DNA of 32,000 nucleotides from NCBI GenBank assembly GCA_038889235.1, contig JAWAHN010000001.1, positions 1-32,000 on the forward strand. Reading direction: 5' to 3'. Below, piece after piece: positions 17,003 to 24,901 of the stretch. How positions within the stretch are numbered: the stretch's first letter is position 1; each line of letters begins with the position of its first letter. The translations under genes were made by a program, and so were the position numbers. Below the pieces are notes generated by a model. It was not told the DNA's origin and searched no databases. It saw only the letters and a program-made list of their open reading frames with translations. Source of the DNA: Candidatus Jordarchaeales archaeon (GTDB lineage: Archaea > Asgardarchaeota > Jordiarchaeia > Jordiarchaeales > Freyrarchaeaceae).

Positions 17003-17827
17003 TTGTCCGTGGAGGGAGTTATCATAGATTTCCACGTTCACCCTTACTTCAACCACGGTGACGGGAAAAGTTTTAACTGGAGGGATTACTGGTCGCTGGA
17101 GTTCACTTACCGCTCTCTCAAACACCTTGGGATGAAAACCGGGGTGAGAGGGCTTTGCAGGTACTTCGAGGAGCGCATGAGAAGGAGGAGGGTGAAAAAG
17201 TGTGTTGTGTCAACGTTTTACACTCACCTTAACTGCGTCGTGAAAGCAATGGTGGAGCTTCGACCAGACCTCTTCGTAGGGTTCTGCAACGTTGATCCCA
17301 GGGAGGAAAACGCTGGAAGAAGCCTTGTGAGGCTTATCAGGCTGGAGGGGTTTAGGGGGTTGAAGCTTCACCCGCTCCACCAGAAGTTCCGCCCGCAGGA
17401 CGCGCTGAACGTGTGGGAAGCCGCCTCAAAGCTCAGGATCCCGGTGCTCGTCCACGCGGGGAAAATATGGAAGAGCGACCCAGACTACGCTGACCCATCC
17501 CACTTCCACGAGGTCCTCGACAGGTACCAGGGGTTCACGCTAATCTTGGCTCACATGGGGGGAAACTACGTGAGGGAGAGCGTTGAGCTCGCAAGGAGGT
17601 TTGACAACGTCTTCATGGATACCTCGGGTGCTTCAGCCAGGAGGATAATGTACAGCCTGGAGAGGCTTGGAGCCGAAAGGATACTTTACGGAAGCGACTC
17701 ACCATTCATACCTATGGGAGACCCGTTGCCAGAAATAGAGAAGGTCAAGAGCCTACCGATAAGTGAACGCGAAAAGGAGATGATCCTAGGAGAGAACGCC
17801 ATGAGGATACTCGAAGTACACCTCTAA
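17003..17827 (+). CDS. amidohydrolase family (amidohydro_2 TIM-barrel metallohydrolase)
   Basis: Motifs IIDFHVHP, GLKLHP, VLVHAG, ILAHMGG, MDTSG and ILYGSDSPF. Confidence 0.9.
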   Translation: MSVEGVIIDFHVHPYFNHGDGKSFNWRDYWSLEFTYRSLKHLGMKTGVRGLCRYFEERMRRRRVKKCVVSTFYTHLNCVVKAMVELRPDLFVGFCNVDPREENAGRSLVRLIRLEGFRGLKLHPLHQKFRPQDALNVWEAASKLRIPVLVHAGKIWKSDPDYADPSHFHEVLDRYQGFTLILAHMGGNYVRESVELARRFDNVFMDTSGASARRIMYSLERLGAERILYGSDSPFIPMGDPLPEIEKVKSLPISEREKEMILGENAMRILEVHL

Positions 17828-19039
17828 ACTAAAATGCGGGAAACATTTCACCCTTTTTTCTTCAAAAATTGCTCCACCTTCTGCTTTTAGCTTCTCCCAA
17901 ATGACGACACTGCCACCTCCTACTCTACCCACCTCACTGTTTAGGCTCAGTTCCCCCTGATTTTCACATGTTTTTGCAGAATGCTTGAAGGTTTATTGGG
18001 TTGCAAGCGTTCAGGGGCAACTTTTACTAGTAGGCAGCTTTCTGCTTCTGCGCCCCACTCAGTTTCCCTTTATCCTTTTAATCACATGGACTTTACCTGC
18101 GTGAGGAATTCAGCCCCCTCAGTGCAGCTTCCAAAAGTCTCCGCTTGAACGGCTTTTCATGCAATGACGATTTTCACTAAAAGTTAGTGAAATACATATG
18201 CTTCCAACCAGAACCACTCAAATAACTAAGACCTAAAAAAGCGGAGAAGAAGCACTAGGGGACAAAAGGTTCTCGAATTCTTTAAGCAAAAAATTAACTT
18301 CCTTTTTCTTAAAGAAGTTAGTCCAGCGAAAAACGGTGGGAGGGGGTATTGTGGATAAATGGGTAAAAGTTTATGGGGGCGAGCTAGGGTTTAAAGGGAA
18401 GGAAATTCCTTTGTCGAGCTCGCCTCCCCCTAAAATTTTCTCTTTTTAAAAGGGCACTTTGATACTCGTATTTTTCGCATGGAGTTCTCTCTTGTGATTA
18501 CTAGTAAGTGGCTTTTCCGTTGCAGCCATGGGCACCCTTACGTACCTATGATTTGCACGCGCATCGCTCCTAGGTTAACGCTTCATTGAGCCCCTCAGCA
18601 ATATTAACGAGCCCATTGGAGGATCCATATAAGGGGGCTTTTTCACTGCGAACCTGCCATGCTTTGACGCCTTTCCTGTGTGGCAGGTTTATGACTGCTC
18701 CATTGGTGGAAGAGTGAGACGGATGGTGTAAGTTTTTAGAAGTCGGCTAGGTCTTCTGAGTTGGCCTTAAACTGTCACTTAGCCCTCTAGGGTGGTGGGG
18801 CCGCCGCAAGCAAAACTACGGCTAATTTAGAAGTTTCGTATTTTAAGTTGATGAGGCACTATGGTGGTTGCTTCCTTCGCGGCACGAACATATTTTATGT
18901 TGTAGTGCAGTTTTCTCTAGCCTTTGGCCGGGGGGCATTAACACTGTCTCCAAGCACCTAAAGAGGACTGGTGAGGGCTAAACTGGCGGTTTTCGTGCCG
19001 CGTGCCGTCGAGCCCGGCCTCTTTAGGACCCTTTCTTTT
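17828..19039. other. 1.2-kb region without long ORFs, rich in inverted repeats (candidate structured RNA or cis-acting DNA site)
   Basis: No ORF of 60 aa or more in the track. Perfect stems at 18172/18184 (9 bp), 18295/18314 (7 bp), 18378/18417 (8 bp), 18651/18681 (9 bp), 18878/18992 (11 bp) and 18957/19018 (10 bp). Confidence 0.5.
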
Positions 19040-19651
19040 TTAGAAACCCATTTCGAGCATTGTTAAGAGAACTTCGCTCGGGTGGAGCTCTAGGTTTTCC
19101 ACTTCGATTTCCACTATTTTTCTGAGTTTAACCTCTTCGCCGCTTACTATTTCTGCTATTTTCGCGTCGGCGAGCTGTTGACAGAGCTGCACCACCCTCC
19201 ACCTTTCAAGCCCCAACGTTCTAGCTATGGTTGTAAAGGACAAGTGTTGACCCTTCTTGTGGGCGTCGAGGAGCATGTCGTATATCTCTGCCCTCTTTTC
19301 GTGCGAGAGGGCGAAGCCCAGCGTTGCTGCTTCGTCCGCCGACATGTCGTCTAGAGTTTTCACCGACCCGTCTTCAACGTCGATAAGCTTGATTTTCAGT
19401 TTCTTATTCAAGAAGAAAACTACTCCTAGGTGGACGGCTTTGAGAACGCCTCCCAGACTAGGCTTGGACAGAAACCTGAGCTGGTCGTAGACATACTTGG
19501 ATGACTTGCCAGTCTTTTTCTTCATCCAGTTGGGGTTAACCACTTTCTTGTCGAACACTTCCTTCAGTATTTCCACTCTTGTCGGATGCGCTAGGGCCTT
19601 GAAGTACGGCACAGCGTTTTTCATGGAGTCGGTCAACAAGCACACCTCCAC
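19040..19651 (-). CDS. tandem winged helix-turn-helix protein (two ArsR-like repeats)
   Basis: Two related segments, FKALAHPTRVEILKEV and GFALSHEKRAEIYDML, each followed by an HTH and beta-wing. The GTG start shares 1 nt with the upstream TAG; a start a few codons later is also possible. Confidence 0.8.
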   Translation of the reverse strand: MEVCLLTDSMKNAVPYFKALAHPTRVEILKEVFDKKVVNPNWMKKKTGKSSKYVYDQLRFLSKPSLGGVLKAVHLGVVFFLNKKLKIKLIDVEDGSVKTLDDMSADEAATLGFALSHEKRAEIYDMLLDAHKKGQHLSFTTIARTLGLERWRVVQLCQQLADAKIAEIVSGEEVKLRKIVEIEVENLELHPSEVLLTMLEMGF

Positions 19652-22164
19652 TAGAGTGGTTCAACAGTTAAGGGGCCGGGCTTTGAGAAGATGAAGCCCG
19701 GCTGGAGGCAGTTCATTTCTCGAAGAACGTTTGCAAGGTTTAGTGCGGTCTCCTCGTCTATGGGGACGTCGAGCACTAGGAAGCGCTTCTTTTTCCTTCC
19801 ACTCCAGGCGCCGAAGAGCCCCGATATCAGTGAGAGGAGAGAGATGAATTCTCCGTCGCTCAGAGTGTGAATCTTTTGGGAGACACGTCTCCCGAGGACC
19901 AGTCGTTCCAGGACGCCTACGTCGACGTGGAAGTCCTTTATCCCAAGGATCTCGCCGATTTTCGGCAGGTCTTTGGAGAGCATGTTGAAGAACTCCCTTT
20001 TGGCATTGTCCTCTGTCCGGCTTAGGAAGCCCGCCACGATATCTGCGAGCTTGGCGCACCTCTCCACTGACGCTACGCGACTCTCCCGCTTTTCAATTTC
20101 CCTCGAGAGCGTGAGGAAGCGCTCCGCTTTGACCTCAAGCTCCTTGATCCGGTCCTCAAGGTTCTTCTTTGAAGCCTTAATCTGACTGACCTTCCTCTTA
20201 AGCTCAGCAGCCTCCTTCTTCACTTCCTCGTAGTTTTCTGTGGCGTACTGCTGCTTCAAGGACTCGAGCTTCCGCTCCTCTTCTTCAAGGTCCTTTCTCA
20301 TTTTTGCAGCTTTCTCACGCATATCCGCCAGCTGCGCTTCAGCACTTACTATCCTAGCCCTCAGAGACTCGATAACCCTTAAGCCTTCATCCCTCTCCCT
20401 TTTCGCCTTCTCAAGCTCACTCCTCAGCTTGAACCGCTCCTTTTCAAGCTCTTTTGCTGCCTCGTCGAGACCCCCAAGCTTCATCCTAACGGCGTCAAGC
20501 CTTAACTCGTATGTTTTTAACTCCTCCTCAGCCTCCTGAACCCTCCTCCTCAACTCGTTCACTTCTAGCTCCTTGCTCTTAACGGAGGCGCTGAGCTCAA
20601 CGTAACTCCTTTGAAGCTCTATCGCCTTGTCCACCTCCCTCAATATGTCTTGCAGCTCCTTCTGCCTGAACTGCAAGCTCCTAAGCTTCCTCTCAATCTC
20701 TCCTATGTGGCTTTCCAGCTCCTTGACTTCCCTTGAAAGGTTGACTGTTTCAGCGTGGCATAGGGGACAGAAACCTTTCTTCTCAAGCCAGCACTTGAAG
20801 TCCCGGAGGAAACGCGCCTCGGACGATAAGGAGCCTATGAATGGCTTAACGGATCTCTCGAGCTCGTCAGAGAGGCGCTCTCTGAGGGAGACGAGTGACA
20901 TGGTGTCGCTTATCTGTTCGGGGAGCTCAGCCACTTTAGCTCTGAGAGAGGCGTAAGAGTTGACGATCCTCTGAAGAGATATCATGTCCTTGTTCAGGTT
21001 AAACTCCTTGACGCGTAGCTGCTCCCTTAAATTCTCCAGCTCCGGCTTGAGACGGGATATGGCTTCGACAAGCTGCTTCTCCCTTTCAATGTAAACCCCC
21101 TTATCTTCCAAGGGTGTTTCCTTAGAGAGCTCAGCATCCACCACTTCCATTTTCCTACTGAGGGAGACTATCTCCTCTTCAGCGCTCCTAACCCTCTCCT
21201 CAGCCCTCTTGAGGTCGCCCTTCAACAACTCTACTTCTTTCTCGAGCTGGGCGACCCTCCTCGCCACGTCTTCAAACGTCTTCCTCATGAGGTCTACCTG
21301 TTCTTCCTTCACTCTGATGCTGTTAGCGAGGTTTTCCAGGCTAGACTTCTTAGCTTCAAGCTCCTCTATCCTAGCTGAGAGAGAAAGCTGCTCTTTCTCC
21401 ATGGAAATAATTTTCTCTCTGAGCTCGCCCGCCTCCCTTGCAAGTTTCGACGTAAGACCTAGGAAGGCTGCCTTAAGCTGGCTGACGTACTCTGAAAGGC
21501 TGCCTCCCCTGCTGGGAGAGGGCACGCCCTCCTCTGACAAGTACTCCTCGAAGCTCGTAACTTCGCTCTCAAGCTCTTCAAGCCGCATTTTTAGGCTCGT
21601 CCTCAGCGATTCTATGTCGCTTCTAAGCTGTTCAAGCAGGTCGAGGTAGGTTAGAGACCTCACCTTCTCTTTGAGCTGCTGGTAGCTCTTCTCCAGGTCG
21701 CCTCTTAGGATGAACACGTCCTTAATGTTACCTAGCACGGTCTCACCGGTGAACTTCTCGAGGAATGCTTCGACATCCCTGCCCTCAGCCAGAATCTCTC
21801 CTGTCTCCGGGTTCACCACGCGGCTCTCGACGTAGACCGCGCCATCCGGGGAGCGGGAAACCCTTCTGATCACCCTGATGAGTCTCAGCTCGCTGCTCGA
21901 AGGATTTGCAAGCTCGAGCTCAACTACACCGGTGTCCCCGGCAAGGTAGTCTTCGACTATTTTGACGTCTCCGACTATGCCGAAGAGTATGAGACGTGCC
22001 GTGGAGGTTTTGCCCGCCCCCATGCGGCCGGATATCTTGAAGGGGCCTCTAGGGAACGTGTACCACTTCGCTGGCTCATCGAAGCCGCTAAAACCTGCCA
22101 CACGGAAGCCGTTAATGAATACTCCATCTTCTACTTGAACGTCGGCATGCGGTCTTTCAACCAA
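19651..22164 (-). CDS. Rad50/SbcC-like SMC-superfamily coiled-coil protein with zinc hook and degenerate ATPase head
   Basis: N-terminal Walker A ISGRMGAGKTS, two long heptad coiled-coil arms flanking a central CPLC (aa 466-469, nt 20769-20758), and C-terminal LSDGE and FLVLDVP. TTG start with a GAGGTG RBS. Confidence 0.9.
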   Translation of the reverse strand: MVERPHADVQVEDGVFINGFRVAGFSGFDEPAKWYTFPRGPFKISGRMGAGKTSTARLILFGIVGDVKIVEDYLAGDTGVVELELANPSSSELRLIRVIRRVSRSPDGAVYVESRVVNPETGEILAEGRDVEAFLEKFTGETVLGNIKDVFILRGDLEKSYQQLKEKVRSLTYLDLLEQLRSDIESLRTSLKMRLEELESEVTSFEEYLSEEGVPSPSRGGSLSEYVSQLKAAFLGLTSKLAREAGELREKIISMEKEQLSLSARIEELEAKKSSLENLANSIRVKEEQVDLMRKTFEDVARRVAQLEKEVELLKGDLKRAEERVRSAEEEIVSLSRKMEVVDAELSKETPLEDKGVYIEREKQLVEAISRLKPELENLREQLRVKEFNLNKDMISLQRIVNSYASLRAKVAELPEQISDTMSLVSLRERLSDELERSVKPFIGSLSSEARFLRDFKCWLEKKGFCPLCHAETVNLSREVKELESHIGEIERKLRSLQFRQKELQDILREVDKAIELQRSYVELSASVKSKELEVNELRRRVQEAEEELKTYELRLDAVRMKLGGLDEAAKELEKERFKLRSELEKAKRERDEGLRVIESLRARIVSAEAQLADMREKAAKMRKDLEEEERKLESLKQQYATENYEEVKKEAAELKRKVSQIKASKKNLEDRIKELEVKAERFLTLSREIEKRESRVASVERCAKLADIVAGFLSRTEDNAKREFFNMLSKDLPKIGEILGIKDFHVDVGVLERLVLGRRVSQKIHTLSDGEFISLLSLISGLFGAWSGRKKKRFLVLDVPIDEETALNLANVLREMNCLQPGFIFSKPGPLTVEPL

Positions 22165-22361
22165 TATTGCGACACCTCAGTCATTAGCATTGAAGGAAAA
22201 ACGAGACTGCGAGCGCGCGTCGTTGCCTTAAGGTCCTCAGTTTTTTCACAATTTCCGTGAGAAAGAGGAAGGGGATGAGATATAAACTTATCGTGAAATA
22301 GCCTCGCGGGCAGCGAGGTTAGGGCTTCCGGAAGATAAATAAAGTCTCATGATCAAATATT

Positions 22362-22610
22362 TTGTGCGCTTGGGGGGTAGAATTGACAGGACTTAAGCTA
22401 GTCGAGAAGAGGTTTCCTCGCAACGACGAAGTCATATGGCATGACGACAGTGTGAAGGAGGCTATCAGTAGACTTGAGAAGGGAGAGGATGTATGGGTTT
22501 GCTCGAGGAAGCTATCGCTCCTAATAAAGATGTACGGCAAAAGAGTGGTGGTGGAACCTTTAAGCTGGAAGAGGAAGATGATCTTTAAGGTGTCCCGTGC
22601 CGAATCCTAG
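22362..22610 (+). CDS. small hypothetical protein (75-82 aa), divergent from the SMC-like gene
   Basis: Protein-like composition and codon usage. The real start may be TTG 22383 after GGGGGGTAG. Converges on the U32 gene stop. Confidence 0.6.
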   Translation: MCAWGVELTGLKLVEKRFPRNDEVIWHDDSVKEAISRLEKGEDVWVCSRKLSLLIKMYGKRVVVEPLSWKRKMIFKVSRAES

Positions 22611-22627
22611 GGCACGGCCTCCATTGG

Positions 22628-24901
22628 TTAGGCGACACCTCTGAAGAAGTGCCCTCTTGTGAGGGGGGATAGCTTCCTCAGCCTTTCCTTGAGTGGTGAC
22701 GGATCCTCGCCGTCTAAGGCGGACCGGTACGCTCTAACGACTTCTTCTACGTAGCTTGAACTCCTTGCTCGGCAGTCCAATCTAACGACGTTAATGCCTG
22801 CTTCAGCCAGCTTTCCAAGGGCGTCTATCATGCAAAGGTCTCTTGAGTTGAGGACGTGCATTCTGCAGTTTTGGTCGAATGCTAAGGGGAAGCGGAACCC
22901 CCTTTCGTCCTCAATGAACAGAGATAGCTTGAAGCATGGCCTATCGCACCTCCCTTCAGGGTGAAAGACGCTCCTAGCGGTGCAGTGCTCTGAGACCATA
23001 AGCTCCAGCAACCCGTGGGCGAGGCATTCAACCTCCACGCCCCCCTTGCGCATCGACGAGATCTGCTTGAGTGTGAGTTCCGGGCTTAGCGTAACCCCTC
23101 TAATCCCCAAGCGTCTAAGCACGCTTAAGGAGACGGAGTTCGTTATGTTTAGGAAGTAGTCCGCATATACGGGGGCGACCGACGCTTCAAGTAACAAGTT
23201 AAGTGTGCCGTAGTTGCCTGCGATTACACCGTCGGGCTTAAGCGCCGCTAAATCCTTTAGGGAGGACGAAATTGAGGCGACATCGCTGTTCCGCGTTATT
23301 CTCGGAGTGGATAGCATAAACTCAGCACCGTGATCCCTGCAGTAATCCCTGCCCTCGCCGAGCTCTTCAAAACTCAAGGGGGAGCGGGGCTTGAAGTAGT
23401 CTCCTCCTATGACGACGCGGTCCGCTCCGTAGTCGACAGCTAGTTTGAGCAGCTCTAGGCAGTCGACACGCACGGATAGTTTAAGCTGACCGCTGCTTGT
23501 GGATGCGTCTGGAAACCGGTCGGGGGTGTGGGGGAAGGCAAGGGGTCCTTTCCCAGTGTCCCAGTGAGCTGTGAGGAGCCGAGCATCTTTACCGTCGGTG
23601 CCCCCCGGAGCATGGGGGCTTCTTAGGGATTGGTTGGAGCACCATTGTGTTGTACGACCGGCGGAGCCAGCCATTTTACAGCCAGCTTTCTCTAGAATGC
23701 GCTCGACCCAGCTGACTACTTGGGAGTCACGTGTCCTGTAAACTTTACAGCCTACGTGTGCCTCCCCGTCGAACGGCATACTTACGGTCTCGCCCGCCTC
23801 CGCGCGCTCGACCCGCCCATGCTTGGTGAGTATTTCGCTCACGATGAAGCCCGTCTTCCCCCATTCCCCGACTATTTCTAAGCCATCCCCGACACGTAGC
23901 TCCCTTGAGAGGCGCACTTTCAAGACACCCTTCTTGAGACCTGTAACCACGCCAACCTCGACGCCCACGTTGTCTGGTCTCTCGTAGTTCATCAGCTCTC
24001 TTCCAGGGTTGCCGTCCAGGTAGCCCTCGGTGAACCCCCTGTTGAAAACCGACATAAGCCTCTCCACGGCTCCTCTCTCAGGTGCCTTGCCCTTGAGAGC
24101 CCTCTCCAGTGCACGCTTGTAAACGTCAACAACGACCGCAACGTACTCCGGTCGCCTCATCCTACCCTCTATCTTGAGGCCGTTAACGCCCGCGTCCACG
24201 AGGTCGCGCAAACGGTTGACTAGGCACAGATCCTTAGTGCTGAGCAGGTGGCCTTCAGCGAGCACCCTCCCCGACTGATCGATTAGCTTGTAGCGCTTGC
24301 GGCACGGCTGAGCGCACCTACCCCTGTTCCCACTCCTCCCCCCTATTATGCTGCTCATGAGGCAGGCTCCTGAATAGGAGAAGCATAGGGCTCCGTGGAC
24401 GAACACTTCCAGCCACATGTCCGTAGTCGACCTAATTTTCCGGATCTCCCCCAGCGAAAGCTCCCGTGCAAGTATGACCCCGTGCGCTCCAAGCTTTTCA
24501 AGAAACTTGGCGGCCTCAGCGTTGTGGGTTGTTGTCTGCGTGCTCGCTATCAGCTTCAGTCCCTGCAAGCGTTTTCCCATCTCTAACACTGCTAGATCCT
24601 GGAATATGATGGCGTCCGCTCCTGCCCTGTGAAGCTCTTCAAGGTGGTGGGCGACCTCGCCGAGTTCCTCGTCGAATACCAGCGTGTTAACAGTGACGTA
24701 GACTTCGACACCGCGTGTATGAGCGTACCTTACGGCCTCCTTTATCTCTTCCATTGTGAAGTTTTCAGCGTACTGCCTTGCATTGAAAGACTTTCCACCA
24801 AGGTAGACCACGTCCGCTCCACACTCCACCGCTGCAAGGAAAGACTTCCACTCGCCTGCCGGAGCTAGGATCTTTGGCCGCATGAACCACCGTTCCTCCA
24901 A
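22628..24901 (-). CDS. U32 family protein, long two-domain form (RlhA/TrhP-like Fe-S RNA hydroxylase)
   Basis: Motifs GADVVYLGG, FVHGALCFSYSGAC...NRGRCAQPCR (four cluster Cys) and LKIEGRM. These are followed by a beta-barrel and a second degenerate U32-like domain (LSPEL, LMVSEHC, HVLNS). Confidence 0.92.
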   Translation of the reverse strand: MEERWFMRPKILAPAGEWKSFLAAVECGADVVYLGGKSFNARQYAENFTMEEIKEAVRYAHTRGVEVYVTVNTLVFDEELGEVAHHLEELHRAGADAIIFQDLAVLEMGKRLQGLKLIASTQTTTHNAEAAKFLEKLGAHGVILARELSLGEIRKIRSTTDMWLEVFVHGALCFSYSGACLMSSIIGGRSGNRGRCAQPCRKRYKLIDQSGRVLAEGHLLSTKDLCLVNRLRDLVDAGVNGLKIEGRMRRPEYVAVVVDVYKRALERALKGKAPERGAVERLMSVFNRGFTEGYLDGNPGRELMNYERPDNVGVEVGVVTGLKKGVLKVRLSRELRVGDGLEIVGEWGKTGFIVSEILTKHGRVERAEAGETVSMPFDGEAHVGCKVYRTRDSQVVSWVERILEKAGCKMAGSAGRTTQWCSNQSLRSPHAPGGTDGKDARLLTAHWDTGKGPLAFPHTPDRFPDASTSSGQLKLSVRVDCLELLKLAVDYGADRVVIGGDYFKPRSPLSFEELGEGRDYCRDHGAEFMLSTPRITRNSDVASISSSLKDLAALKPDGVIAGNYGTLNLLLEASVAPVYADYFLNITNSVSLSVLRRLGIRGVTLSPELTLKQISSMRKGGVEVECLAHGLLELMVSEHCTARSVFHPEGRCDRPCFKLSLFIEDERGFRFPLAFDQNCRMHVLNSRDLCMIDALGKLAEAGINVVRLDCRARSSSYVEEVVRAYRSALDGEDPSPLKERLRKLSPLTRGHFFRGVA

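Follow-up and report, generated by a model that had tools for sequence, protein, structure and literature searches.

The locus between positions 17828 and 22610 of the DNA analyzed here raises the question of whether a Rad50-like gene and the winged-helix gene adjoining it form a functional unit, and of what belongs to that unit. The DNA, referred to below as the window, comprises the 32 kb at the start of contig C1 in a Candidatus Jordarchaeales genome (genome code G000; 2.14 Mb in 8 contigs). The initial annotation described in it an open reading frame (ORF) for an SMC-like protein with a zinc hook, an ORF with two winged helix-turn-helix (wHTH) domains, an ORF-free stretch, and a small divergent ORF, and all four were found where it had placed them. 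It went on to propose a module made of a scaffold, a DNA-binding adaptor, and a cis site or RNA. Our analysis upheld two of these three parts, the SMC-like and wHTH genes, which are a conserved pair, and discarded the third, the 1.2-kb non-coding part. The two genes form a conserved, expressed two-gene operon that is restricted to Jordarchaeia-type Asgard archaea, and the 1.2-kb non-coding region plays no part in the unit.

The longer gene (19651-22164, minus strand) encodes a Rad50-like SMC-superfamily protein of 837 amino acids (aa), as judged from its translation, its motifs, an AlphaFold2 (AF2) model, hhalign comparisons, and RNA-library contigs. It has an N-terminal head, whose P-loop is intact, and a degenerate C-terminal head, with two coiled-coil arms of approximately 270-290 residues between them. 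Its motifs comprise a Walker A sequence (GRMGAGKTS) that aligns with the P-loop of the genome's own Rad50, a central CPLC at residues 466-469, an LSDGE signature, and a Walker B sequence (LVLDVP) that lacks the glutamate. In the AF2 model, which has a predicted local distance difference test (pLDDT) score of 75, the arms meet at the CPLC, located between helices 421-463 and 473-564; no match to SMC_hinge was found in the protein, and the hook stands in its place. An alignment of five sequences with identities down to 30% revealed that the GRMGAGKTS, CPLC, KRFLxxD, and NCxQxGF blocks are invariant. The position of the Q-loop glutamine is occupied by R154, or by glycine in the most distant homolog; the signature reads LSDGE or LSDAE; and Walker B reads LVLDV or LLIDT, with the catalytic glutamate replaced by valine or threonine. 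No H-loop histidine was found after the D-loop in these sequences. The long protein is a Rad50-derived coiled-coil protein that has lost the Q-loop glutamine, the Walker B glutamate, one signature glycine, and the H-loop. The persistence of the same motif pattern at 30% identity argues for selection that would have retained nucleotide binding and hook-mediated dimerization, but not hydrolysis.

The best fold match of the long protein in the PDB was Rad50 of the MRN complex (7zr1_D), followed by Smc5/6, condensin, MukB, JetC, and LmuB, and weak profile matches were obtained to the Rad50 hook or head structures 6zff, 3aux, and 1l8d, the hook structures being 6zff and 1l8d. The N-terminal head aligned with the genome's own Rad50 over 246 columns (hhalign probability 98%, E = 1e-13) and more weakly with its SMC (93%) and with a second SMC-like protein (92.8%). 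When the heads were searched alone, only the N-terminal half was recognizable, as Rad50/AAA_23, and the C-terminal head returned no family match. A Pfam scan of the whole protein yielded only coiled-coil noise, and an NCBIfam scan yielded sub-threshold matches to models of Rad50, SMC, and the archaeal SMC-related proteins (ASRPs). The Rad50 hidden Markov models (HMMs) NF041034 and NF003034 scored 74 bits (cut-off 1000) and 62.6 bits (cut-off 700), respectively, and the ASRP model NF045487 scored 88 bits (cut-off 300). The ASRP match is unspecific, since two other proteins of the genome, its true Rad50 (120 bits) and the second SMC-like protein (106 bits), scored higher with the same model. We read the long protein, which fails the curated Rad50, ASRP, and SMC models, as a lineage-restricted variant of the archaeal SMC-related proteins.

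The genome contains the canonical SMC and Rad50 machinery elsewhere. A complete NurA-HerA-Mre11-Rad50 operon with another Rad50 (807 aa) is located at C1:219-225 kb, approximately 200 kb from the gene pair. An SMC gene scoring above the curated cut-off is followed by ScpA and ScpB genes at C1:621.5-626.2 kb, and the only match of the ScpA HMM (C1:625161-625757) falls here, beside the canonical smc. A second hinge-bearing SMC-like gene is located at C1:198-201 kb. Given this machinery, the long protein is an extra paralog, the fourth of the SMC superfamily, and Rad50 is its closest relative within the genome. The initial annotation had reckoned with the possibility that the gene was the genome's sole Rad50, with mre11 elsewhere; the canonical operon shows that this does not apply.

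The shorter gene (19040-19651, minus strand) encodes a probable tandem ArsR-type winged-helix protein, which is 203 aa long when read as the longest ORF; the assignment draws on its translation, HMMs, an AF2 model, fold comparisons, and an RNA contig. The one-base overlap with the long gene (TAGTG) that had been described is true for this longest ORF only. Because a GGAGGTG ribosome-binding site overlaps the GTG in question and all orthologs align from residue 6, the start codon is probably a TTG 12-15 nt further on, at approximately position 19636, which would give a protein of 198 aa. The ribosome-binding site lies over the upstream stop codon, and the junction of the two genes in relatives is either a 4-nt overlap or a 12-nt gap. 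The tight coupling of both genes is conserved, whichever start codon is used.

The small protein contains two ArsR-like sequence repeats, each half opening with an ArsR-type helix motif, and the weak HMM matches on both halves remained below the family cut-offs (HTH_20, 21.7 against 27; NF033788, 32.4 against 55). In the AF2 model, the C-terminal winged helix (residues 105-186) was predicted with confidence and the N-terminal half poorly, with a pLDDT below 50 over residues 37-75. The top Foldseek matches were HlyU, CadC, AntR, SrnR, and SmtB (probability 1.0, E of approximately 0.01-0.05), with CzrA also among the best; the further matches were many generic winged-helix domains, and the ScpB domain was just one of them. 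Its neighbors in the ESM Atlas were ArsR-family proteins of approximately 190 aa carrying HTH_5/HTH_20. The ScpB HMM (PF04079) did not match the small protein and found only the canonical scpB in the genome. With fold matches this generic, the analogy that had been drawn with kite/ScpB-type partners of SMC proteins gained no specific support, nor did that with WhiP and origin-binding proteins, the downstream spacer containing no repeats similar to origin recognition boxes (ORBs).

Both genes lie side by side in 4/4 other genomes of the same family. Adjacency within the family proves little, however, because the entire neighborhood is syntenic across it. Searches with single sequences and profiles covered six sister-family genomes and approximately 400 Asgard genomes; the pair was found neither in the six sister-family genomes nor elsewhere among the approximately 400, and the winged-helix family profile returned from the 400 Asgard genomes only the four family members and generic single-domain matches. 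An exhaustive search with the small protein among 1.84 billion representatives yielded the ortholog cluster and one real homolog (31% identity, 197 aa). This homolog is encoded on a 39.5-kb metagenome contig (L050) directly beside an 824-aa protein, which matches the long protein along its entire length at 30% identity (E = 1e-89) and repeats its motif pattern; the winged-helix and SMC-like genes are divergent there. An amidase on L050 has its closest match (approximately 60%) in the sister family within that order, which suggests that the contig represents a related but distinct lineage. The initial annotation had called for a test of gene order, and the homologs of the two genes proved to be adjacent in all four relatives and, at 30-31% identity and in changed orientation, on L050. 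That the two genes still co-occur after this divergence and a rearrangement is what speaks most strongly for a functional connection between them.

Other searches outlined the same narrow distribution. Word-based protein searches with the long protein recovered only four close clusters and missed the 30% homolog, which is a singleton in that database, and pattern scans of genomes and metagenomes found Jordarchaeales loci only. No relatives of the pair were found in viral contigs. The DNA of the locus was also found in hot-spring metagenomes, and one ortholog of the long protein at NCBI is filed as Candidatus Freyarchaeota. On L050, a Roadblock/LC7 gene follows the winged-helix gene (L050:3767-4126), a gene-poor stretch of approximately 1.2 kb occupies L050:4126-5306, and a Cdc6/Orc1 gene starts approximately 8 kb away.

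Evidence of expression came from RNA-library contigs of a sediment metatranscriptome, which derive from a strain 95-99% identical to the window and cannot prove absence, strand, or ends. These contigs cover 17386-17841 (the 3' end of the amidohydrolase gene), 18915-22237 (in four pieces), and 22573-22700; none was found over 17842-18914 or over 22238-22572, and these silent stretches argue that the contigs are RNA and not contaminating DNA. One piece (19581-20536) bridges the junction of the two genes, and another (18915-19584) runs from inside the winged-helix gene to 18915. The stretch thus covered downstream of the gene (18915-19039, minus strand) is probably the 3' untranslated region (UTR) of the operon and contains a hairpin (18957-18966/19018-19027, inverted repeat I3); the folding z-score of this UTR was not significant.

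When the upstream regions of four relatives were aligned, three islands stood out as conserved, the sequence around them being unalignable. One of them, shared by all four family genomes, is a promoter element resembling a B recognition element (BRE) and TATA box, GATAAGTTTATATC (22279-22292, minus strand). A 21-nt block, TCTCACGGAAATTGTGAAAAA (22241-22262, minus strand), shows at most one mismatch across the four relatives and contains a TCAC-N7-GTGA inverted repeat, a candidate operator. A Shine-Dalgarno-like TGAGGTG (22173-22179, minus strand) upstream of the start codon of the SMC-like gene is also conserved in this alignment. The 15-nt core of the 21-nt block occurs once in the 2.14-Mb genome when up to one mismatch is allowed. 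Transcripts of archaea start at an established spacing from the TATA box, and the block would begin at about the predicted transcription start; the RNA contig ends at 22237, just downstream of it. The inverted repeat places two half-sites one helical turn apart. The block looks like the kind of operator that a winged-helix repressor, dimeric or pseudo-dimeric, would bind, and the co-encoded protein is the obvious candidate for that repressor. An operator-like motif on L050 matches 11 of the 15 positions and lies approximately 25 nt before the winged-helix start codon, with approximately 0.07 such matches expected by chance in that spacer according to our estimate.

The ORF-free stretch downstream of the operon (17828-19039, 1212 bp) contains no ORF of at least 60 aa and is the largest gap between ORFs of at least 100 aa in the window. 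The lineage is reported to recode stop codons, and no convincing frame opened in the spacer when TAG or TGA was read as a residue. The initial annotation described it as rich in palindromes and stems. Between the amidohydrolase and winged-helix genes, the tail-to-tail spacer measures 1212, 612, 436, 144, and 2 bp in five genomes, in agreement with the metagenome loci, and the spacers of relatives show no detectable DNA similarity to the 1.2-kb one. With lengths of 2-612 bp in relatives and no shared sequence, it cannot be counted as a conserved component. Nor do its stems exceed chance: the mean folding z-score of 120-nt windows was -0.23 on the plus strand and +0.14 on the minus strand, in line with neighboring coding DNA (-0.23 and -0.30), and only two plus-strand windows (18360-18479 and 18600-18719) had a z-score below -2.

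Neither the window nor the spacer nor the related loci yielded anything credible, or a tRNA match, in searches with Rfam (gathering and permissive thresholds) and ARAGORN. A tblastx comparison of the spacer with the whole genome detected no paralogous pseudogene remnant, no copy of the operator-like motif was found in it, and scans for sigma-70-type promoters and terminators gave no more sites than in shuffled sequence. The region 17700-19200 contains only short, imperfect repeats in two or three copies. A near-identical DNA contig from another sample carries two 1-nt deletions inside the spacer, as expected for sequence that is probably unconstrained. A region neither conserved nor transcribed was what the initial annotation itself had named as contrary to its proposal, and this is what we found: no similarity among relatives and no RNA-library contig over 17842-18914. 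On the strength of its length, the missing DNA similarity, and the absence of Rfam matches and RNA contigs, the stretch 17828-18914 was classified as a variable tail-to-tail spacer that is not part of the module. A replication origin in the spacer was also considered and rejected, as ORB-type repeats, a cdc6 gene, and an inflection of the skew were all lacking and the spacer is absent in relatives; the window as a whole contains no Cdc6 gene.

Two features of the spacer are recorded here as observations in their own right. An element of approximately 52 nt (18325-18379), which contains a TATA-like ATAAAT, is its only recurring piece and is 80% identical to G000:C3:330943-330992 and 85% identical to G003:C29:6847-6897 of a relative. 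It is followed by a strong hairpin, in which 18375-18385 pairs with 18417-18427, and by a T-rich run. The stretch 18325-18450 could comprise a shared promoter and a small RNA gene, whose product of approximately 60 nt would be too short to be expected in RNA contigs. In addition, T-rich direct repeats of 19 nt (79% identical) bracket the spacer at 17850-17868 and 19028-19046; they may be 3' end signals of the two genes or could be the ends of an old insertion.

Several known systems resemble the pair in part. The long protein shares with Rad50 its overall architecture, its size (837 aa against the 807 aa of the genome's own Rad50), a homologous N-terminal head, and an apical CxxC zinc hook. 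Unlike Rad50, it lacks the Q-loop glutamine, the Walker B glutamate, and the H-loop, has an LSDGE/LSDAE signature, and scores 62-74 bits against HMM cut-offs of 700-1000; its partner gene encodes a winged-helix protein and not a nuclease, and Mre11, HerA, and NurA genes are not adjacent. ASRPs (ClsN, Sph1/2) and Rkd4 are established lineage-specific archaeal SMC-related proteins (PMC9389158, PMC11344861). The architecture of ASRPs comprises terminal Walker A and B motifs, a coiled coil, and mostly a zinc hook (PMC9389158), and ClsN organizes chromatin compartments without a known kleisin (PMC9389158, PMC11344861). The long protein resembles ASRPs in being lineage-restricted and in having a Walker A motif, a coiled coil, and a zinc hook; whereas ASRPs are described with a Walker B motif, it keeps only the aspartate of this motif and not the catalytic glutamate, and a conserved winged-helix partner is not reported for ASRPs in either of the two papers (PMC9389158, PMC11344861). 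As in SMC-ScpA-ScpB, a long coiled-coil ABC-type protein is encoded beside a protein with two predicted winged helices, but the pair has no hinge domain, no kleisin gene, and no match to the ScpB HMM.

We tentatively favor, as a possibility still short of probable, a reading in which a static Rad50-like tether is combined with a winged-helix protein that is both its adaptor and the autorepressor of the operon. The long protein would dimerize through its zinc hooks and would probably still bind nucleotide, with hydrolysis slow or absent, and would thus serve as a static tether or scaffold with a span of approximately 40 nm rather than as a motor or the partner of a nuclease. As a single-chain pseudo-dimer, the winged-helix protein would read two half-sites, repress the operon at the TCAC-N7-GTGA element, and also act as the adaptor that binds the tether to DNA. 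In function, the pair may come closest to coalescin (ClsN) and its bridging of chromatin. A bolder version, which we consider unlikely, sees in the pair a minimal Asgard SMC-type complex, namely a hydrolysis-dead, Rad50-derived zinc-hook tether that is loaded at specific DNA sites by a pseudo-dimeric winged-helix adaptor; such a complex would need neither a kleisin nor a nuclease nor an ATP cycle to bridge or cohere DNA.

A number of points weigh against the combined tether and adaptor. The physical interaction of the two proteins is a prediction, and DNA binding by the long protein remains putative. Nucleotide binding and head dimerization are likewise assumptions, since the C-terminal head was modeled at low confidence (pLDDT 43-64) and has no family match, and the aspartate in LSDGE may block ATP-sandwich dimerization. 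The winged-helix fold is generically ArsR-like, with no specific likeness to the known partners of SMC proteins. The divergent layout on L050 is typical of a regulator and its target and not of two subunits, and the operator-like match on that contig is only suggestive. The family comprises approximately five species and one metagenome singleton, which makes the comparative evidence thin. A complex prediction for head fragments 1-240 and 660-837 with the winged-helix protein returned a score of 0.00, that is, no answer, and counts neither way.

The strongest rival of the adaptor and autorepressor reading, although a somewhat unlikely one in our estimation, makes the winged-helix protein a dedicated ArsR-type autorepressor only, and lets the Rad50-like protein act by itself or together with proteins encoded elsewhere, the mode of action presumed for other lineage-specific SMC-related proteins of archaea. 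The small protein is of ArsR/SmtB type in sequence and fold and, like ArsR/SmtB repressors, has the helix motif (in both halves), the corresponding fold matches, and a palindromic site at its own promoter; this element is conserved, lies at the predicted transcription start, and is unique in the genome, and the arrangement on L050 is divergent and regulator-like. It differs from ArsR/SmtB repressors in having two domains per chain instead of forming a homodimer, in falling below the family cut-offs, and in being encoded downstream of, and coupled to, a structural gene. This downstream, translationally coupled position within the family would suit a stoichiometric product better, and a protein family seen only beside the SMC-like gene among 1.84 billion representatives also speaks against a regulator alone. 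It is quite improbable that the long protein is a cytoskeletal or membrane-associated descendant of Rad50, comparable to arcadin-4, whose expression is controlled by the winged-helix protein. Its heads have degenerated to the point where only the N-terminal half can be recognized, and the Rkd4 (arcadin-4) HMM gives a weak match (E = 0.0012); yet that match amounts to 17 bits, far under the cut-off of 860, the P-loop and the zinc hook are strictly conserved, and no cytoskeletal genes lie nearby.

A role of the pair in defense, as a reduced Lamassu- or Wadjet-like sensor against plasmids or viruses, appears very improbable. The long protein shares the SMC-like fold and long coiled coils of Lamassu LmuB and Wadjet JetC, whose PADLOC models match it (E down to 3e-20) and whose structures are among its fold matches, but the PADLOC matches fall mainly in the coiled-coil arms (approximately residues 150-745). 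The pair differs from both systems in that no effector (LmuA or JetD) or kleisin-like gene adjoins it, and the locus is held in stable chromosomal synteny with metabolic genes across the family, outside any variable island, and no relatives were found in viral contigs. We give very little credence to the three-part module, in which the 1.2-kb region would be the cis site or RNA component of the unit and which is already largely refuted. The spacer abuts the 3' end of the operon, contains the two locally stable plus-strand hairpin windows (z below -2), and shares the element of approximately 52 nt with one other locus of the genome and with one relative. Against these stand the spacers of 2-612 bp in relatives and the lack of a long spacer after the gene on L050, the absence of similarity to relatives' spacers, of an operator-motif copy, and of Rfam matches, a mean folding z-score equal to that of coding DNA, and the lack of any RNA-library contig over 17842-18914 although both flanks are covered. 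We consider it just as remote that the long gene is a dying Rad50 duplicate without function: four hydrolysis motifs are substituted, but none of the complete copies has its full-length frame interrupted, identical substitutions and conserved blocks are kept at 30% identity, and RNA-library contigs cover the gene.

The small divergent ORF (22362-22610, plus strand) encodes approximately 73-82 aa and is 51-69% identical in relatives. Its conserved start is probably near 22383-22389. Substitutions in the 82-aa ORF concentrate at third codon positions (43, as against 15 and 17 at the other two), which indicates purifying selection within the family. No homolog was found on L050 or elsewhere outside the family, no family match was obtained, and the ESM Atlas returned nothing usable; no RNA-library contig covers 22238-22572. 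The orphan described in the initial annotation is thus a real, divergent gene conserved in the family, but it does not accompany the distant pair on L050 and is at most a putative member of the module.

The other neighbors of the pair in the window encode a GH1 protein, an amidohydrolase, a U32 protein, a YfcE-like phosphoesterase, and two uncharacterized ORFs. The initial annotation correctly noted that no Mre11/SbcD, NurA/HerA, ScpA kleisin, or defense effector adjoins the gene pair, and the neighbors are mostly metabolic. A 247-aa metallophosphoesterase located 3.7 kb away was considered as a cryptic Mre11 and rejected; it is YfcE/phosphodiesterase-like. The U32 protein (757 aa, 22628-24901) consists of two U32-family modules, the N-terminal half being TrhP/UbiU-like and the C-terminal half UbiV-like, and looks like a fused UbiU-UbiV-type enzyme. 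In the same-genus relative G003 (L036), the corresponding region gave two tblastn segments with a gap, and its longest ORF is only 497 aa.

Two observations concern the canonical machinery outside the window. Directly downstream of the NurA-HerA-Mre11-Rad50 operon, a 348-aa protein composed entirely of HEAT repeats is encoded (G000:C1:225365-226411; L034:9366-10412), with weak matches to Cnd1, PDS5, and stromalin domains. The second SMC-like protein (1117 aa, hinge-bearing) matched SMC_prok_A with 261 bits, below the cut-off, and its gene lies in a same-strand run (G000:C1:193977-201466; L035:1978-9467) with genes for a MoxR-like AAA_5 ATPase (568 aa), a 559-aa protein of no family, and a 276-aa AAA-lid protein; no evident kleisin gene adjoins it in this run.

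Asgard archaea are the closest known relatives of eukaryotes, and the way their chromosomes are organized is relevant to how cohesin, condensin, and Smc5/6 arose. The genome studied here carries four SMC-superfamily proteins, one of them a Rad50 derivative tied to a DNA-binding protein. With a distribution limited to approximately five Jordarchaeales species and one singleton, the pair is as yet a curiosity of its lineage and not a general principle. If the pair did work as a static, site-directed tether, the Rad50 scaffold would be reusable without its nuclease and without an ATP cycle, and coalescin would be joined by a second lineage-specific SMC-related chromatin protein in archaea.

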